Assembly (NCBI GenBank): GCA_963719165.1
Contig: CAVRAV010000001.1
Location: 1,637,215-1,701,214 of the forward strand
Source of the DNA: an uncultured Actinomycetes bacterium
GTDB lineage: Bacteria > Actinomycetota > UBA4738 > HRBIN12
Length of the DNA: 64,000 nt
Reading direction: 5' to 3'
Shown here one piece after another: positions 38,647-44,836 of the stretch (the first letter of the stretch is position 1; every line of letters starts with the position of its first letter). The notes beneath the pieces are model-generated. The model worked only from the letters and a program-made list of their open reading frames with translations. It had not been told where the DNA came from and did no database searches. The position numbers and the translations under genes were made by a program.

Positions 38647-39945
38647 ATGACGCTCCCCCTCCGCCGCGCCCTTGCGATGGCCCTGACCGGCGGGGCGCTG
38701 CTCGCCCCGCGGGCCTCCGCCGCCGTGGTGTGGGGGCCCGATCACCCGGTGGGGCCCCCCTCCGTCTGGAACCCGGGAGCATCGCTGACCGCGACGGCCG
38801 ACGGACTCCTCGTGGTGTGGTCGAGCGACTGCCCGCCCCCGCACGGGCGATGCGCGACCGACCGCGGTCCGTTCATGGGGGTGTTCGCGCAGCGCGGCGG
38901 AGGCGGCCGGTGGTCGAAGCCGGTGCGGGTTTCCCAGCCCAAGCGCCAGGCCGAGCGCGCCTCGGTGACCGGCGCGGGCTCCGCCGTGCTGGCCGGCTGG
39001 GTCACGCAGACCTCCTACCGTCATTACCGCGCCACGGCGCCTCGCGCCTTCTACGTGCGACGCGCCTCTCGGTCGGGCCGGCACTGGTTCCCGGCGGTGC
39101 GTCTGTCTCCGGCGGGCGGCCGCGTCGACTACCCGACCCTCGCGATGACGGGCAGCCATGCGTACGCCGCCTGGACGATGGCCGGATCGGGGGCGATCCG
39201 GCTTGCCACGAGCGCCGACCAGGGCAAGACGTGGAGCGTGAGCACGGTCGGCAACACCACCGCGCGCCCCGACGGCGCCGAGGGGTTCGCCGGCTACCCC
39301 GTCGTGGGGGCGAGCGGATCCAACGTGGCGCTCACCTGGTACGCGGACGGCGACGGAAAGCAGGTGGTGAAGACCTCGAGCGCCGGCGGCGCCGACTGGA
39401 ACAAGTCCTCCGCGCTCGACGTGCTCACGCCGCGCGGTCCGAACGACGGTTTCCACTACGCGGGGGCGCGGGGCGCCACCGACGGCACGACCGAGGATGT
39501 GGCGATCTCCTACACCACGACGGGCGGGCTCGCCGTGCGCGTGTGGGATGGGTCGACGCTGGGTCCGGAGCGCGACGTGCTCGCGGGCACCTGGCCGACA
39601 AACCTGCGGGGCCGGACCTACGCCGGCGCCTACGGTCCGGCCGTCGCGCCCTCGGGGACCGAGGACCTGGTGGTGGCGTTCGGCGCGTGCCGCCGGACGC
39701 AGCTCGCGAACCCGTGTGGCTCCACCCGTCGATCCGCGCGTGTCGATCTGTTCGCGACGAGCTCCGGCGACGGCGGCCTCAGCTGGTCGAGCCCGCTCCG
39801 ACTCTCCGGCAAGGAGGCGAGGATCAACGAGTCTCCGTCGCTCGCGCTGACGCGTCCCACCCGCGCCGTGGTGGTGTGGAACGCGCGCGACCCGGCTTTC
39901 CTCAGGTACGGGTTGCGCCTGCGCGCCGGCGTGGGCGGACCCTGA
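38647..39945 (+). CDS. Secreted BNR-repeat (sialidase-like) beta-propeller protein
   Basis: Signal peptide; Asp-box repeats SADQGKTW, SSAGGADW, SSGDGGLSW. Confidence 0.75.
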   Translation: MTLPLRRALAMALTGGALLAPRASAAVVWGPDHPVGPPSVWNPGASLTATADGLLVVWSSDCPPPHGRCATDRGPFMGVFAQRGGGGRWSKPVRVSQPKRQAERASVTGAGSAVLAGWVTQTSYRHYRATAPRAFYVRRASRSGRHWFPAVRLSPAGGRVDYPTLAMTGSHAYAAWTMAGSGAIRLATSADQGKTWSVSTVGNTTARPDGAEGFAGYPVVGASGSNVALTWYADGDGKQVVKTSSAGGADWNKSSALDVLTPRGPNDGFHYAGARGATDGTTEDVAISYTTTGGLAVRVWDGSTLGPERDVLAGTWPTNLRGRTYAGAYGPAVAPSGTEDLVVAFGACRRTQLANPCGSTRRSARVDLFATSSGDGGLSWSSPLRLSGKEARINESPSLALTRPTRAVVVWNARDPAFLRYGLRLRAGVGGP

Positions 39946-39957
39946 GCACCCAGACGC

Positions 39958-40278
39958 TCAGCACGCACGCCGAAGGCAGAACCCTCGGTAGGGCCGGCCC
40001 TGGATGCACGCATGGAACCGCCGCGAGCATCCGCCGCACCGGTACAGGTTCCCGCCGCACGCGCACCCCGTCTTGCTTATGGGTTCGCACCCCACCTTGC
40101 AGGGGTCGGGATGGGGTCGTGCGCGGGCCCGCGTGGCGCCGAGGGTGCTCACGGCCGCGTAGGCCCCGAAGGCCGCGAGCGAGGCACGCGAGACGAACGA
40201 CCGCCGCGTGAGCTCGCGTGTCCGCTCGCGCGGCGATCCGGACCGCTCGACGACCGGTGGCCCCGCTTGCTCAGCCAC
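39958..40278 (-). CDS. Small Cys-rich exported protein with a twin-arginine signal (TRRSFVSRASLAAFGAYAA)
   Basis: 9 Cys in a ~52-aa mature region; start overlaps the stop of the upstream TlpA-like gene. Confidence 0.55.
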   Translation of the reverse strand: MAEQAGPPVVERSGSPRERTRELTRRSFVSRASLAAFGAYAAVSTLGATRARARPHPDPCKVGCEPISKTGCACGGNLYRCGGCSRRFHACIQGRPYRGFCLRRAC

Positions 40279-40844
40279 CGGCGGCTCCCACGATCCGCAC
40301 GCCGTCGCCCTCGGCCACGAGATCCGCGACCTCGTCCACGGTCTGGACTGGGCCGCGGGAGACCACGGCGCCGCCCTCGTCGATCACGAACACGGTGGGC
40401 GTGATGTCCACGCCGAAGGCGTCGGAGACGTCGGTGCCGTGCTCGCTCACCAGCCGAACACGCTCGGCCGCGTGCCACCCGGAGGGATGGGCCTGGAGAT
40501 CGCCCCGGCTCACCACGACCACCGTGGGGAGCCGCCGCGCCGCTGCTTCGGACACGACGCCGGGCACGAGCGTTGCGCACGCGGCACATGCGGGGTCCGC
40601 GAAGAGCACGAGGTGCCGCAGGCCTGCCGTCTGGCGCGCATCGAACACGCTCGCCGTCGGCGGCGTCGGCGCGGAATCCGGGAGCTCGGCTGCCCGGCGC
40701 GATGCCCCCGGAGAGATGACGCACCGCGGCCTCGTCCGCGGCCCGGAGCTCGCCGATGGTCCGTGCGGCTCCCGAAAGCGCCAGCAAGAGCCACGCCACC
40801 GCCGCCGCGAGCACCCCGACCAGGACCCATGGCAGCCAGCTCAC
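40271..40844 (-). CDS. Membrane-anchored TlpA-like thiol:disulfide oxidoreductase, apparent frameshift near 40650
   Basis: GTG at 40844 (GTGA overlap with upstream stop); TM anchor then APGFRADAADGERV in one frame and FDARQTAGLRHLVLFADPACAAC (CxxC) in the frame of track ORF 40271..40648. Confidence 0.6.
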
Positions 40845-41302
40845 GTTCGCACCCTCTCCACGCGCAGCGACGCGAGGGCGTCGTTCGCGATCCGCAGACG
40901 GGCCGCGGTGTGCAGGTCCAACGACGCGATGAGGTAGAGGCTGAACGGACGGCCGCTCATGGAGAAGAACCGCTGCACGCCGGCCCGGTCCGGCGCAGGC
41001 ACCTGGAGCGTCCGCGGATCGAGATCGTTCGCGCGGATGCGCGGGGCCCCCTGTGGCGCGTAGAGGCCCACGTCGGCGAGGTCGGGCGAGAAGCTCACCA
41101 ACGAGCACACCAAGCCGCCACGCCGCCCGCGCAGGGTCGCCGCCGTCTCCAGGTAGGAGCCGTGGTCGAAGGGCAACGGCACGTCGGCGAGGTGAAGCAC
41201 GGGGTGGTTCTCCGCGGGAGGGGGCAGGCGCGGGGTGAAGATCCGCCCCTCCCAGCCGGGGGGAACGTCCACCGAGAGCCCCCGGTCGGCCAGCCTCGTC
41301 AT
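40841..41302 (-). CDS. Hypothetical protein (153 aa) inside the thioredoxin/Cys-rich operon
   Basis: ATG at 41302 overlaps the upstream stop (ATGA); coding-like composition (MTRLADRGLSVDVPPGWEGRIF...). Confidence 0.5.
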   Translation of the reverse strand: MTRLADRGLSVDVPPGWEGRIFTPRLPPPAENHPVLHLADVPLPFDHGSYLETAATLRGRRGGLVCSLVSFSPDLADVGLYAPQGAPRIRANDLDPRTLQVPAPDRAGVQRFFSMSGRPFSLYLIASLDLHTAARLRIANDALASLRVERVRT

Positions 41303-41898
41303 CGCAGCACCACCGCGGCGGCGGCCACAGCCAGTGCCGACTCGCCCCACAGGATCGCCCGACGGACCGGGCCGCCCCAGCGCGAGAGCCCTCCTTGGAC
41401 ACGGCCGAGTTGCGACCGCTCCCGCACGCCCGCCACCGCGAGGATGGGCAACGCGCGCAGGGTGCCGAACACCAACCCGATGAGCGCGGCCCGCGGGACC
41501 CCGCCCACGAGCAGCTCGGAGAACAAGGCGGCGTAGATCGCCGACGCGGTGACGATCGTCACGAACCCCGCCCCCAGTTGGAACCCGAACCCGGCGCCGA
41601 ACACGGGCCCTCGGTAGCGCAGCATCCACTCCTCGTTCACCTGACGACGCACCGAAGGCAGCCGCAGGCCGCCGATCCCCAGGTCGGCCGCGAGCCCCAG
41701 GAACACCGCCGCCACCAGGAGCGCGATCCGCGCGGTCCACGGAAGCGTGCGCGCGAGTGGCAGGCCCACGAACCCCAAAACGGCGCCCACGAGCGCGCCG
41801 GCGGACGCGGAGGCGACGACGTAGGCAGTGGCCGTCGGCCAGAACCGGGATCCGCGTGCCCGCTGCCCGAGCGGGGTGATGCTTCCCATCATCGACAT
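41299..41898 (-). CDS. Integral membrane protein (4-5 TM helices), hypothetical
   Basis: Hydrophobic segments; ATGA coupling to the downstream gene. Confidence 0.55.
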   Translation of the reverse strand: MSMMGSITPLGQRARGSRFWPTATAYVVASASAGALVGAVLGFVGLPLARTLPWTARIALLVAAVFLGLAADLGIGGLRLPSVRRQVNEEWMLRYRGPVFGAGFGFQLGAGFVTIVTASAIYAALFSELLVGGVPRAALIGLVFGTLRALPILAVAGVRERSQLGRVQGGLSRWGGPVRRAILWGESALAVAAAAVVLR

Positions 41899-41981: not shown

Positions 41982-42662
41982 TCAACGCGGTCCCCCGCCG
42001 TCGGACGAGCCTTCCGCGCGAGCCAGCTCCTCATCGGCCATCGCGTCGGTGAGCAGCGACCGGACCTGGTCCCACGAGCTCGCGGCGCCCTCCCCGCGGA
42101 CCTCGCCGTCGGCGCCCACCATCACGAAGAACGGCGACATCGTGATGCCGTAGTCGGCCCAGGCCTCGGTGGACATCACGACCGGAACGTCCGCCGGCGC
42201 GAGATCCTGCAGGCGGGACGGGCTCTCGAGGTCACGTCCCTTGGTCACCACGACCACGCGGGCGCCCTCGGGCATGGGTCGATGCGCGCCCGCGCGCAGC
42301 CCCTCCCAGAAGGCGCGGCAGGTCAGGCAGCCGCTCGACAGGAAGGCCACGAGCACGGGAACCCCCGCCGAACCGACGGGCGTCACCACGGCGTCACCAC
42401 CCAGCGTGCGGCCGGACAGGTCGTAGGCCGGGGTGAGGTCCCGAGGGCCCGGCAGGTGCGTGGGGATGCGCGGCGCCTCCGGTGCAGGGGCCGCCTCGTC
42501 CGAACGGTTCCCGAGGGGGAGCGGCTGCGGGCTGGGTGCCTCGTCGGGAGTCGGCAGGCGCCGGAGGATCTCCGCGTGGCTGCGCAGGAGCCCCACCACC
42601 ACGAACGCGAGCAGTGCGAGCAGGAGCGTCTCGATGACCACGATGACGGTGAGGGCGGTCAC
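41982..42662 (-). CDS. Membrane-anchored thioredoxin-like (TlpA/ResA-like) protein with a CxxC motif (SSGCLTCRAF)
   Basis: GTG at 42662 overlapping the stop of the Cys-rich gene (GTGA); TM helix then thioredoxin fold. Confidence 0.65.
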   Translation of the reverse strand: MTALTVIVVIETLLLALLAFVVVGLLRSHAEILRRLPTPDEAPSPQPLPLGNRSDEAAPAPEAPRIPTHLPGPRDLTPAYDLSGRTLGGDAVVTPVGSAGVPVLVAFLSSGCLTCRAFWEGLRAGAHRPMPEGARVVVVTKGRDLESPSRLQDLAPADVPVVMSTEAWADYGITMSPFFVMVGADGEVRGEGAASSWDQVRSLLTDAMADEELARAEGSSDGGGPR

Positions 42663-43246
42663 AGGCAGCCCGCCTCGTGCGAACAGGTCACCTGGTCGAC
42701 GGCGGCCGAACAGTGGCAGTTCACGCATTCGATCTCGCAGGGCAGCACGCACGTGACGAGCCGGCATTGGATCGGCGTGACCGCGGCGATCTGGGTGTTG
42801 CACTGGCCGTAGCGGAAGACCACGCAGCACGTCTTGAAGTTCCTGCAGTCGTCGCTGCCACAGTGGCAGCCGCCGGGGCACGCCTTCCCGGGATCGATGC
42901 TGCAATCGAGGTAATAGCGGACGTTCGTGGTGCCGCACAGGCCGCTGCCCCCGTAGCTGCATTGCCACCACCCGCCGACGAACGTGTTCTGGGGGCAGCC
43001 GAAGTTGGAGCCGCCGGGAAGCGTGCAGCAGAAGGCGGTGTAGCCAGCGCAGCACCGGGAACCCGGCGGACAGCGGCTGCAGGATGCGCGCACGAGGTCC
43101 TCCGCCGCCACTGGGCGCGTCGCATACCGCACGGGCGCCACCGCCAGGGCGGCAGCCGCGACCGTCGCGCGCTCCGCACGTGAGCGCTCGGGCCCGCGCG
43201 CCACCCACGAGGTGGCAGCCTTCATCGCCCGCTCCGCCACGCTCAC
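42659..43246 (-). CDS. Cysteine-rich exported protein (25 Cys in 195 aa; CC doublets, CxxC, CHC motifs)
   Basis: Cys codons cannot arise from GC-frame artefacts; N-terminal Ala-rich signal-like region; start and stop both overlap neighbours (ATGA at 43243-43246, GTGA at 42659-42662). Confidence 0.65.
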   Translation of the reverse strand: MSVAERAMKAATSWVARGPERSRAERATVAAAALAVAPVRYATRPVAAEDLVRASCSRCPPGSRCCAGYTAFCCTLPGGSNFGCPQNTFVGGWWQCSYGGSGLCGTTNVRYYLDCSIDPGKACPGGCHCGSDDCRNFKTCCVVFRYGQCNTQIAAVTPIQCRLVTCVLPCEIECVNCHCSAAVDQVTCSHEAGCL

Positions 43247-43902
43247 GGGCCCCCGGCCTCCGGTCGATCGCCTCGATCGCCTCGATCGCCTCGATCATTC
43301 GGGCTCGCCCCGTCGGTATCGGGCCACAAGCTCGCATGCCCCTGGCCCACGCCCGACATCGCCAACGCCGCGTCGGCGCGCCGATGTCGGTCCGGATCGA
43401 AGAGCTCCTGCTCGTGATGGGTGGGCGGCGTCCACGCACGGAACGCCGTCGGGGCCTCAGCCACCACGACCGTGACGAGCCATCCCGCCACACAGAGTCC
43501 GACGGCCGCGGGCGCCGCGACCCACCCGACGGCCCTCACGATCGACGGCAACGCGGTGACGCCGATCAGCGCGGCCGCCACGCCCGAGGCGGCGGCGGTC
43601 AGGTTCAAGCCGACATGCACCCAGCTTGGGGGGACGTCGTGTTCGCCGGCGCACCCGCATGAGGCCGCTTGCGGCCGCGCCAGCTTCAGGTAGGCCACGA
43701 ACGCGGCGAACCCGGTGTACAGCGCCGCGAGGAGGAAGGCCACGCCGGGAACCGGACGCGCCAGGGCGGCGACGCCCACCGCCATCTCGACGACACCGAG
43801 CGCCCGAACCCCCCAAAGGCGGGCCGGAAGGCCTGCAGCGTAGAGCGCTTGGGAGGTGGCGTTCGGGCGCACCGTCTTCACGGCACCGCCGATGACGAGC
43901 AA
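43243..43902 (-). CDS. DoxX/MauE-like integral membrane protein with an SCGCAG motif and a C-terminal DRG repeat
   Basis: 4 TM helices; CGC motif between TM2 and TM3 as in MauE-type proteins; tail DRGDRGDRGDR encoded by a 9-bp tandem repeat. Confidence 0.55.
   Translation of the reverse strand: MLVIGGAVKTVRPNATSQALYAAGLPARLWGVRALGVVEMAVGVAALARPVPGVAFLLAALYTGFAAFVAYLKLARPQAASCGCAGEHDVPPSWVHVGLNLTAAASGVAAALIGVTALPSIVRAVGWVAAPAAVGLCVAGWLVTVVVAEAPTAFRAWTPPTHHEQELFDPDRHRRADAALAMSGVGQGHASLWPDTDGASPNDRGDRGDRGDRPEAGGP
43256..43292. repeat. 9-bp tandem repeat (gatcgcctc x ~4) inside a CDS
   Basis: Read directly: cgatcgcctcgatcgcctcgatcgcctcgatc. Confidence 0.6.
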
Positions 43903-43989: not shown

Positions 43990-44370
43990 CTAGGCGGTGG
44001 TTGCCTCCGGCTCCAGGAGCACGTGCACGGCGTCCGCGACGTCCTGCGGATCGAAGGGTTTGGTCATGACCATGTCGGCGCCGCTCGACAGGCAGCGCTC
44101 CCGCTCTCGCGACATGGTGACCGCCGTGAGCACGAGGATCGGCACCCGTTTCGTGTCCGCGTCTTCGCGCAGGACGGCGAGGACGTCGTAGCCGTTCACG
44201 GAGGGCATCATCAGGTCGAGCACGATGACGTCGGGATGCTCGGCGCGCGCAACCTCGATGCCCGCACGCCCGCCGTCCGCGATCAGGATCTGGTGGTCCT
44301 GCCCGTGAAAGGCGTAGCGCAGGATCGTCCCCACCACGGTCTCATCATCGATCACCAGCACTCGCGACAT
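43990..44370 (-). CDS. Single-domain response regulator (CheY-like receiver)
   Basis: ATG at 44370 with GGAGGTGA RBS; MSRVLVIDDE...DLMMP...KPF receiver motifs. Confidence 0.8.
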   Translation of the reverse strand: MSRVLVIDDETVVGTILRYAFHGQDHQILIADGGRAGIEVARAEHPDVIVLDLMMPSVNGYDVLAVLREDADTKRVPILVLTAVTMSRERERCLSSGADMVMTKPFDPQDVADAVHVLLEPEATTA

Positions 44371-44446
44371 CACGTCACCTCCCAGCAACTGCCTTCTGAC
44401 ATCGGCGCGACCGGGCCACACCTGAAGGCCCTTCTGCACGGGCCCT

Positions 44447-44836
44447 TCAGCGCAGGTCGAGGCCTTGGATCCCCTCGAAACCCGACCGGTCGAACGAGAT
44501 GAGCGACCTGTCTCGCGCGATGGCGGTGGCCGCGATCAACAGATCGTGCGCGCCTCGAGGACGTCCGGGCCGCCGCGCCTGCTCGAGCAGCCCCGCATGC
44601 ACTTCGGCCACGGCCAGGTCGTAATCCTCGACCGGGATCGTCGTCACGACCTGTTCGACGAACGTAGCGCGCTTGGGGCGGCGGCGTGCATCCGCCAATC
44701 TCACACCGACCCAAAGTTCGGCCGCCGTCACGGCGGCGATGCTGACATCGTCGTCATCGCGGATGAGATCGTCCAGCTCAGAGAGCCGGCGCTCGACCGC
44801 GACCAGGACGGAGGTGTCCAGGATCACGCGTCCCAC
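44447..44836 (-). CDS. vapC: Type II toxin VapC (PIN domain)
   Basis: VILDTSVLVA..., acidic PIN residues. Confidence 0.8.
   Translation of the reverse strand: MGRVILDTSVLVAVERRLSELDDLIRDDDDVSIAAVTAAELWVGVRLADARRRPKRATFVEQVVTTIPVEDYDLAVAEVHAGLLEQARRPGRPRGAHDLLIAATAIARDRSLISFDRSGFEGIQGLDLR

Follow-up and report, generated by a model that had tools for sequence, protein, structure and literature searches.

A very cysteine-rich protein is encoded at 42659-43246 on the minus strand of a 64,000-nt stretch (the window) of contig CAVRAV010000001.1, assembly GCA_963719165.1, from an uncultured Actinomycetes bacterium, and the locus raises the question of what kind of protein this is. The original prediction, made from the letters of the window, described an unclassified, disulfide-rich exported protein of 195 aa with 25 cysteines, typical of knottin/granulin-like scaffolds. 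The neighbouring genes, which were overlooked in it, identify the system, as they encode homologs of MauE, MauD and MauF. With moderate confidence, the product is read here as a divergent, disulfide-locked extracytoplasmic domain similar to MauA, the light chain (small subunit) of methylamine dehydrogenase (MADH), coming from a "mini-mau" cassette that keeps only the genes for small-subunit maturation. The gene, designated the Cys gene, and its parts are as follows:

42659-43246, minus strand: Cys gene, 195-aa precursor with a putatively MauA-like, disulfide-rich domain; 25 cysteines in the subfamily of the window and 16-18 in the conserved core.
43100-43246, minus strand: leader, residues 1-49, with an n-region helix, E20-R21, an Ala-rich h-region, AVAPVRY, and an AxA-type end.
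42662-43099, minus strand: mature domain, residues 50-195, with conservation determined over 128 representatives.

The Cys gene has a GTG start codon with GGAGG 10 nt upstream, and its product of 195 aa has the predicted 25 cysteines, located at residues 56-194. The claimed coupling to its neighbours was confirmed by GTGA overlaps at both ends, where the upstream stop codon meets the start of the gene and its own stop codon meets the GTG start of the downstream gene. The G+C content at codon positions 1, 2, and 3 is 0.59, 0.63, and 0.89, respectively, in a window with 72% G+C, which matches the pattern of the real genes of the window. Two open reading frames (ORFs) overlap the gene, 42677-43183 on the plus strand and 42721-43179 on the minus strand. 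Both have third-position G+C of about 0.57 and are frame artefacts. Stop-free stretches of 100 aa or more number 347 in the six frames, and the gene ranks first among them in Cys richness; the best 146-aa segment has 25 cysteines in the frame of the gene vs. 13-16 in the five other frames. Cysteine represents 17% of the mature product, and CxC, CC, and CxxC motifs are present. Some details needed correction: the second cysteine motif reads GGCHCGSDDC-x5-CC and not x6, tryptophan is not abundant (only three residues, two of them the invariant W93 and W94), and the Ala-rich, signal-like N-terminus does exist but, with an AxA-like site preceding residue 50, has a length of about 49 aa instead of about 55. 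The product very probably acts outside the cytoplasm. The claim of a disulfide-rich protein with a leader is supported, Tat export of the window copy being putative.

The protein is unclassified, as claimed, since no match was found in Pfam and NCBIfam even at E<=1. Searches of PDB sequences by phmmer and by profile hmmsearch gave chance matches only (p16INK4a with E 2.2 and the 13-kDa complex-I subunit with E 0.33). The prediction would have been weakened by a lack of homologs; in a metagenome protein collection, 312 were found, all annotated as hypothetical save one labelled as a twin-arginine signal protein. An exhaustive profile search extended the family to 498 clusters (50% identity), of which 227 had E<=1e-30. 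Carriers comprise at least 540 GTDB species genomes, exclusively from Actinomycetota. They are mostly uncultured soil metagenome-assembled genomes (MAGs) of Solirubrobacterales, Gaiellales, and "Actinomycetes", with Acidimicrobiia also named. No description of the family or of the partner protein P153 introduced below was found in the literature, nor one of a MauA-like protein without a heavy chain.

In 128 diverse representatives, the conserved positions are an RR pair in the leader (97%), 16 cysteines, G92-W93-W94, R110-Y111-x-x-D114-C115, F144-R-Y-G-Q-C-N, C161-R162, P169, D184, T187, and H190. Invariant in the mature domain are GGWW (W93 and W94, codons at 42965-42970), RYYxDC (R110, D114, and C115), FRYGQCN (residues 144-150), C161-R162, and H190. 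The adjacent W93 and W94 are the sole invariant tryptophans; across the superfamily W93 is conserved in 96%, W94 in 100%, and D114 in 100%.

The answer to the question of identity begins with the four partner genes of the cassette:

43243-43902, minus strand: MauE-like membrane thiol oxidase with CGC motif (PF07291, E 6e-10); its stop codon overlaps the start of the Cys gene, and its own start codon is uncertain.
41982-42662, minus strand: MauD-like thioredoxin-fold protein with N-terminal membrane anchor, GCxTC (CxxC) motif, and cis-Pro; its GTG start overlaps the TGA of the Cys gene.
41299-41898, minus strand: polytopic membrane protein, MauF-like, DsbD_2 superfamily, lacking cysteine.
40841-41302, minus strand: P153, about 150 aa, no signal peptide, with an ATGA overlap with the MauF-like gene.

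Three of these four partners are homologs of mau genes implicated in maturation of the MADH small subunit, the roles of which are cited in PMC7794033 and bioRxiv 10.64898/2026.03.05.709764. The canonical mau cluster of Methylobacterium served as reference for the profiles of the partners. The MauD-like protein aligned in hhalign with MauD (Prob 96%, E 1e-9, 160 columns), and its top NCBIfam match was TIGR02661 MauD (8e-6, far below the cut-off); ortholog alignments keep GCxTC (GC.tC) and the cis-Pro motif. The MauF-like protein aligned with MauF (Prob 96-97%, E 9e-11 to 5e-9, with 154 columns at E 9e-11), the alignment including the RRxQV...W..G..[FY]G..LG motif, and Pfam DsbD_2 matched six of 13 orthologs. 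MauE gave Prob 54% in profile comparison beside its Pfam match, and at least 90% of 57 orthologs keep its CGC motif (sCGC.G). Cross-comparisons between non-matching Mau partners in hhalign were all negative. Homologs of mauE, mauD, and mauF thus lie adjacent to the Cys gene, as would be expected for a MauA light chain, and by their motifs MauE and the MauD-like protein make up a pair of a CXC oxidase and a CxxC thioredoxin-fold partner. Mutant phenotypes of mauF, mauE, and mauD were reportedly described by Chistoserdov in 1994 and van der Palen in 1997. P153 has no similarity to MauJ and MauL and no match in Pfam; neither P153 nor the MauF-like protein matched PDB. The P153 family comprises 1897 clusters, all stand-alone proteins of about 150-170 aa and all hypothetical, with one invariant His only and no obvious metal or cofactor site.

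The cassette is conserved far beyond the window. In 82 short-form loci (L001-L082), searched by tblastn with the partner proteins of the window, the thioredoxin-fold protein was present in 80, the MauF-like protein in 79, P153 in 76, and MauE in 57, a count lowered by divergence and by the ends of contigs. In nearly all of these loci the genes run MauE, Cys gene, MauD, MauF-like, P153. In 80 metagenomic long-form loci (L083-L162), searched with HMMs of the same proteins, P153 was found in 72, MauF-like in 50, MauD in 44, and MauE in 31, all counts being limited by short contigs. Their gene order is MauE, MauD, MauF-like, P153, Cys gene, with MauE or MauF-like sometimes on the opposite strand. 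The MauF-like gene is present in 25 of 31 long-form loci having all four other genes. The cultured Aquihabitans sp. McL0605 (CP188252.1) encodes MauE, MauD, P153, and a 550-aa protein of the Cys domain and LGFP, with no MauF-like gene within 10 kb. Because of these long-form and Aquihabitans loci, MauE, MauD, P153, and the Cys domain are regarded as the core and the MauF-like protein as usual but dispensable. Of all partners, P153 shows the tightest linkage to the Cys-domain gene.

The leader provides the second line of evidence. Two alignments gave the same family consensus of a long leader containing SRRxFL, an h-region rich in Ala, AVAPVRY, and AxA at its end. When aligned alone with the MauA leader in hhalign, it scored 50.4 (Prob 97%) with the n-region helix included. 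A generic twin-arginine translocation (Tat) leader family from the window scored 22-24, and column shuffles about 10, with none of 150 reaching 50.4. At the level of the family, the leader is therefore of the long MauA Tat type. In the window copy the twin-arginine is degenerate, with E20-R21 in place of RR. RR is retained in 53/53 members with 18-19 cysteines vs. 25/63 members with at least 22, and the Cys-enriched clade seems to be losing the Tat consensus. Loss of the twin-arginine accompanies the gain of seven extra cysteines, and this coupling may represent a change of export route inside a single protein family.

The third line concerns the mature domain. The MauA hypothesis was set down from the MauE/MauD gene context before structure searches. 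A first AlphaFold2 run, for the full-length protein and 39 sequences, had pLDDT of 61 and was too poor for use; a second run on the mature domain with 117 sequences reached pLDDT of 86 and pTM of 0.83. It predicted one beta-rich domain, about 145 aa in length, that has three long strands and does not repeat internally. The top PDB fold matches of this model were the light chains of aromatic amine dehydrogenase (AADH) and MADH. Two structure-search programs, run against 48,164 and 350,542 chains, ranked light chains of tryptophan tryptophylquinone (TTQ) dehydrogenases first, with individually weak scores; in Foldseek the AADH light chain was first among 350,542 PDB chains with E 4.6 and TM 0.34/0.43. 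It is the agreement of two programs with a prediction made earlier from context that argues for a relationship with MauA despite the weak scores.

At the sequence level, full-length hhalign against an alignment of 48 MauA sequences gave Prob 95.5% and E 1.4e-8, carried mostly by the leader. With the superfamily profile the mature domain scored 23.9 against a shuffle null of 13.3 +/- 2.9, which one of 150 shuffles reached (p about 0.01), and the reversed control scored 11. Pairwise Smith-Waterman z-scores against MauA were low, 1.7 with the window protein and 2.8 with a member that has 18 cysteines. The light chain of MADH has twelve cysteines in six conserved disulfides. A greedy alignment places 11 of 12 MauA cysteines, W57, and D76 on invariant residues of the family, as follows (family to MauA, with the cofactor tryptophans Trp57 and Trp108 in P. 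denitrificans numbering):

C59 to C23; C65 to C29; C73/C74 to C36/C38.
C84-P to C46-P; W93 to W57; C104 to C61.
D114-C115 to D76-C77; C127/C129 to C86/C88; C166 to C109; C177 to C121.

The light chains of MADH and AADH (MauA; PF02975; PDB 1MG2_B, 3C75, 2AGL_D) are small, beta-rich, disulfide-knotted extracytoplasmic domains, as the window protein is predicted to be; both groups have unusually long Tat-type leaders conserved in the n-region, and MauE, MauD, and MauF homologs are encoded alongside. They also share the local motif DG-x-x-x-CC..G..CP.GT and a strand with Y-x-D-C. They differ in several respects. The window family has 145 aa and 16-25 cysteines, against about 125 aa and 12 cysteines in MauA; it lacks the second TTQ tryptophan, and MauB, MauG, and amicyanin were not found in the context of its cassette; it has the conserved P153 and frequent wall or lectin fusions; and it occurs in Actinomycetota only, while MauA occurs in Proteobacteria.

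Several results weigh against a relationship with MauA or limit it. The mature-domain comparison in hhalign is marginal (score 15-24, E 0.003-0.11, Prob up to 12%). The columns of the greedy alignment that pair W93 with W57 and D114-C115 with D76-C77 have negligible posterior confidence. The disulfide topology and the W93 and D114 equivalences are tentative. In the greedy alignment the Trp108 equivalent is Thr or Val, with no tryptophan in the family. PF02975 gave no match at E<=1, and the profile search of PDB sequences found no MADH or AADH chain. In tblastn, MauB, MauG, MauJ, MauL, MauM, and MauN were found neither in the 64-kb window nor within +/-8 kb in the other short- and long-form loci, and the sialidase-like propeller listed below has no similarity to MauB. 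The MauF-like protein is missing in six of 31 complete long-form cassettes. The window copy is without twin-arginine, and its h-region is Ala-rich and weakly hydrophobic, so its export is putative. The role given to P153 is pure inference. Finally, MauE is reported as a generalist oxidase with a distribution that does not follow MauA, so a MauA-like substrate cannot be deduced from MauE alone. Homology to MauA is nevertheless probable, and not membership, as PF02975 fails, the cofactor pair is not conserved, and MauB and MauG were not found. Since the heavy chain, MauG, and the second cofactor tryptophan were not found in these searches, the window protein is not a subunit of a TTQ amine dehydrogenase.

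The cysteines themselves behave, as far as their gain and loss in alignments can tell, like disulfides. Among 117 close members 18 are invariant, and the subfamily of the window adds seven (C56, C66, C123, C140, C170, C174, and C179). Intermediate forms have 22 (the 18 with C56, C66, C123, and C140) or 24 (the 25 without C174). Extra cysteines were thus gained in even sets (+4, +6), with C174 as the lone odd one, and this gain and loss in even sets argues for structural disulfides rather than metal-thiolate sites. Many long forms, e.g., P0327, P0365, and P0367, have an added Cys-rich insertion, C-g-c-g-g-s-g-i-C-s-g-a-C-s-g-T-x-C-G-C, between the RYYxDC strand and the CxC motif, so the scaffold tolerates an extra disulfide-rich loop at that site.

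Domain fusions indicate where the protein works. Among the top 148 cluster representatives, 89 have a C-terminal extension of more than 100 aa, 51 are stand-alone, and eight are extended by more than 100 aa at the N-terminus, the extension being MauE in the two representatives scanned. The C-terminal extensions were assigned by Pfam to LGFP repeats, CWB2, DUF4214, ricin-B lectin, and FG-GAP, and by eye to propeller- or Ig-like repeats. Fused relatives, with named examples from Iamia sp., are 400-740 aa long, often with the Cys domain at the N-terminus. The wall and glycan modules at the C-terminus of 89/148 representatives argue for an extracytoplasmic, wall-directed role. Four proteins (P0243, P0245, P0248, and P0345) have an N-terminal MauE fused to a complete leader and Cys domain, one of them with five independent members. 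A five-helix MauE followed by the hydrophobic segment of the leader would leave the Cys domain at the wrong membrane face, and because of this puzzling topology the fusions were given little weight as Rosetta-stone evidence. Two further architectures were rejected. P0253, in which one ORF joins the Cys domain and MauD, and P0057, which is out of the family frame beyond residue 140, look like frameshift or read-through calls and are taken as assembly artefacts.

Taken as a MauA-like domain, the protein would be made in five steps. At the level of the family, the precursor carries a long MauA-type Tat leader, with RR intact in most members and decayed in the clade of the window. Cytoplasmic P153 might escort the reduced precursor, bind its leader, or be co-exported with it. 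After export, the membrane-anchored MauD-like CxxC thioredoxin would introduce or shuffle disulfides, eight to nine in the family core and 12 with a spare C174 in the window copy, and MauE, DsbB-like, quinone-linked, and with its CGC site, would re-oxidise MauD, in keeping with homology and the published MauE experiments. The MauF-like protein would aid an undefined step, as it does for MauA. The mature domain would then be active at the cell envelope, as the N-terminal "business" domain in most relatives. Its fusion there to LGFP, CWB2, ricin-B, or FG-GAP modules suggests an enzymatic or effector role, centred on the invariant cluster of W93-W94, R110, D114, and F144-R-Y-G-Q.

The alternative that survives best is an unrelated disulfide-rich surface or secreted protein on a generalist MauE/MauD pathway, with its likeness to MauA explained by convergence among small, Cys-rich beta proteins and by a generic Tat leader. 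According to bioRxiv 10.64898/2026.03.05.709764, MauE substitutes for DsbB in E. coli, needs its CXC motif, and is probably quinone-linked; the oxidase is a generalist of wide occurrence, with thioredoxin fusions in about 8% of MauE proteins and MauA in only 10% of the species that carry MauE. The window resembles that pathway in having MauE with CGC followed by a thioredoxin-fold partner. It differs in that one extremely Cys-rich client, the MauF-like protein, and P153 share the operon, which suggests that the cassette is a dedicated rather than a generalist oxidative-folding system. In Streptomyces, too, MauE and MauD accompany unrelated precursors that have eight or more cysteines: the candidate "RiPP" (ribosomally synthesised and post-translationally modified peptide) clusters found by decRiPPter have MauE with or without MauD and a small precursor with at least eight cysteines, and the rest of mau is missing (PMC7794033). 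A 106-aa Tat protein with 10 cysteines at 39958-40278 of the window resembles these precursors. The client of the cassette differs from them as a 145-aa domain with a MauA-like model and leader, accompanied by the MauF-like protein and P153 and often placed within large wall proteins. That sequence methods fall short of significance for the mature domain would also fit an unrelated protein. Such a protein does not explain why two structure-search programs put TTQ light chains first, as predicted from context, why the leader scores twice the generic Tat control with similarity reaching into the n-region, or why the mature-domain score lies above 149 of 150 composition-preserving shuffles. The presence of a homolog of MauF, known only from mau clusters, is likewise not accounted for, and this explanation is considered unlikely.

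A heavy-chain-independent quinoprotein is a quite unlikely explanation. W93 or W94 would be oxidised to a Trp-derived quinone, cross-linked or not, in a wall-anchored redox or amine-oxidising enzyme. The greedy alignment sets W93 on W57 and D114-C115 on D76-C77, which includes the catalytic Asp76, all three residues W93, W94, and D114 are conserved at the levels given above, fusions of this kind, to modules that target glycans or the wall, are characteristic of catalytic domains, and the MauA-type leader is kept together with MauE, MauD, and MauF homologs. Against this, the alignment columns concerned carry negligible posterior confidence, there is no tryptophan at the W108-equivalent position, and the core cysteines are even in number (16-18), with no conserved odd one for a cross-link of the cysteine tryptophylquinone (CTQ) type. 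No MauG, LodB/GoxB-like, or QhpD/QhpG-like gene was found in the cassette or its flanks, and P153, with its one invariant His, has no obvious metal or cofactor site. QhpC, the gamma subunit of quinohemoprotein amine dehydrogenase with the CTQ cofactor, is similarly small, heavily cross-linked, and Cys-rich, with dedicated maturation genes. In QhpC, Cys-to-Asp/Glu thioethers are made by a radical-SAM enzyme, and there are no disulfides. The window cassette has no radical-SAM enzyme, and QhpC was not among the fold matches. That soil Actinomycetota possess a new class of wall-anchored quinoproteins or redox enzymes, derived from a MauA scaffold with a new Trp cofactor at the WW/D site, is distinctly improbable; maturation by MauE, MauD, the MauF-like protein, and P153 is part of the same proposal.

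A thiolate protein for metal binding or storage, of the metallothionein or copper-storage type, could be imagined from the 17% cysteine of the mature protein with its CxC, CC, and CxxC motifs, and is highly improbable: the extra cysteines come and go in even sets, the operon encodes a thiol oxidase and thioredoxin pair, the family has an export leader, the model is confident, beta-rich, and not a helical bundle, and proteins of these types gave no match in Pfam or PDB. Such proteins keep their cysteine thiolates reduced for the metal, in a helical bundle (Csp) or with an unstructured apo-form. An array of knottin- or granulin-like mini-proteins, as favoured by the original prediction, or a RiPP or bacteriocin precursor, suggested by the CC doublets, the regular Cys spacing, and the RiPP-like proposal for Streptomyces MauE/MauD clusters (PMC7794033), is scarcely credible for one domain of 145 aa that is beta-rich, has three long strands, and does not repeat internally, with no granulin, knottin, or defensin among its PDB fold matches or in Pfam, without a RiPP-modifying enzyme in the cassette, and often forming the N-terminal part of wall-bound proteins of 400-740 aa. 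Knottins and granulins, by contrast, consist of cystine-knot or granulin modules of 30-60 aa that usually recur in tandem or otherwise repeated copies.

If the protein is indeed a MauA-like domain of a mini-mau cassette, it would be the first relative of the small subunit of TTQ dehydrogenases outside the amine-dehydrogenase context, and the trio of MauE, MauD, and MauF would be a portable maturation kit for a disulfide-knotted domain, not a methylamine-specific set. The MauE oxidative-folding pathway would gain a natural dedicated client with 8-12 disulfides, and two uncharacterised players, the MauF-like protein and P153, would be added to it. The fusions with LGFP, CWB2, and ricin-B point to an undiscovered cell-wall activity of actinobacteria, in a large family of abundant, mostly uncultured soil Actinomycetota that has no domain model or name in the libraries searched. 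The cultured carrier Aquihabitans sp. McL0605 makes the question of wall activity testable.

Beside the cassette, the window has three further genes that are specific to its clade:

40271-40648, minus strand: second MauD-like thioredoxin-fold protein, 125 aa, no membrane anchor (TIGR02661, 3e-6; hhalign vs. MauD, Prob 96%).
39958-40278, minus strand: Tat-signal protein, 106 aa, with 10 cysteines in a mature part of about 48 aa.
38647-39945, plus strand: secreted BNR/sialidase-like beta-propeller, 432 aa, weak Pfam BNR_2, convergent to the operon.

They form a second mini-system (window positions 38647-40648) directly downstream of the cassette, in which the Tat protein overlaps the thioredoxin by 8 nt and the propeller is convergent. 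The second MauD-like thioredoxin occurs in 27 of 82 short-form loci, all of the window's clade. The 10-Cys Tat protein occurs in 23 of the 82, and the consensus of 22 orthologs keeps tRRgF and the 10 cysteines. The BNR propeller is present in 20 of the 82, and in L021 and L024 it is on the other side of the cassette and still adjacent. Two contigs of MAG MFD09126.bin.1.74 (L008 and L010) each have the full eight-gene extended cassette, so the whole module can duplicate within a genome.

Upstream of the cassette there is a stand-alone response-regulator receiver protein at 43990-44439 and a PIN-domain protein at 44447-44836; these genes are not conserved beside it, being present in seven and one of the 82 short-form loci, respectively. 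In seven Solirubrobacterales loci (L034, L052, L056, L058, L059, L065, and L067), tblastn with MauC (E 1e-8 to 5e-4) revealed an amicyanin-like cupredoxin about 6.5 kb downstream of the cassette, at about 14.6-15.6 kb of these loci, which could be simple synteny among relatives or a remote functional connection. A 9-bp tandem repeat, CGATCGCCT, was found in about 3.5 copies at 43263-43296, directly upstream of the Cys gene's ribosome-binding site, where it encodes (DRG)n in the long, low-complexity C-terminal tail of MauE.

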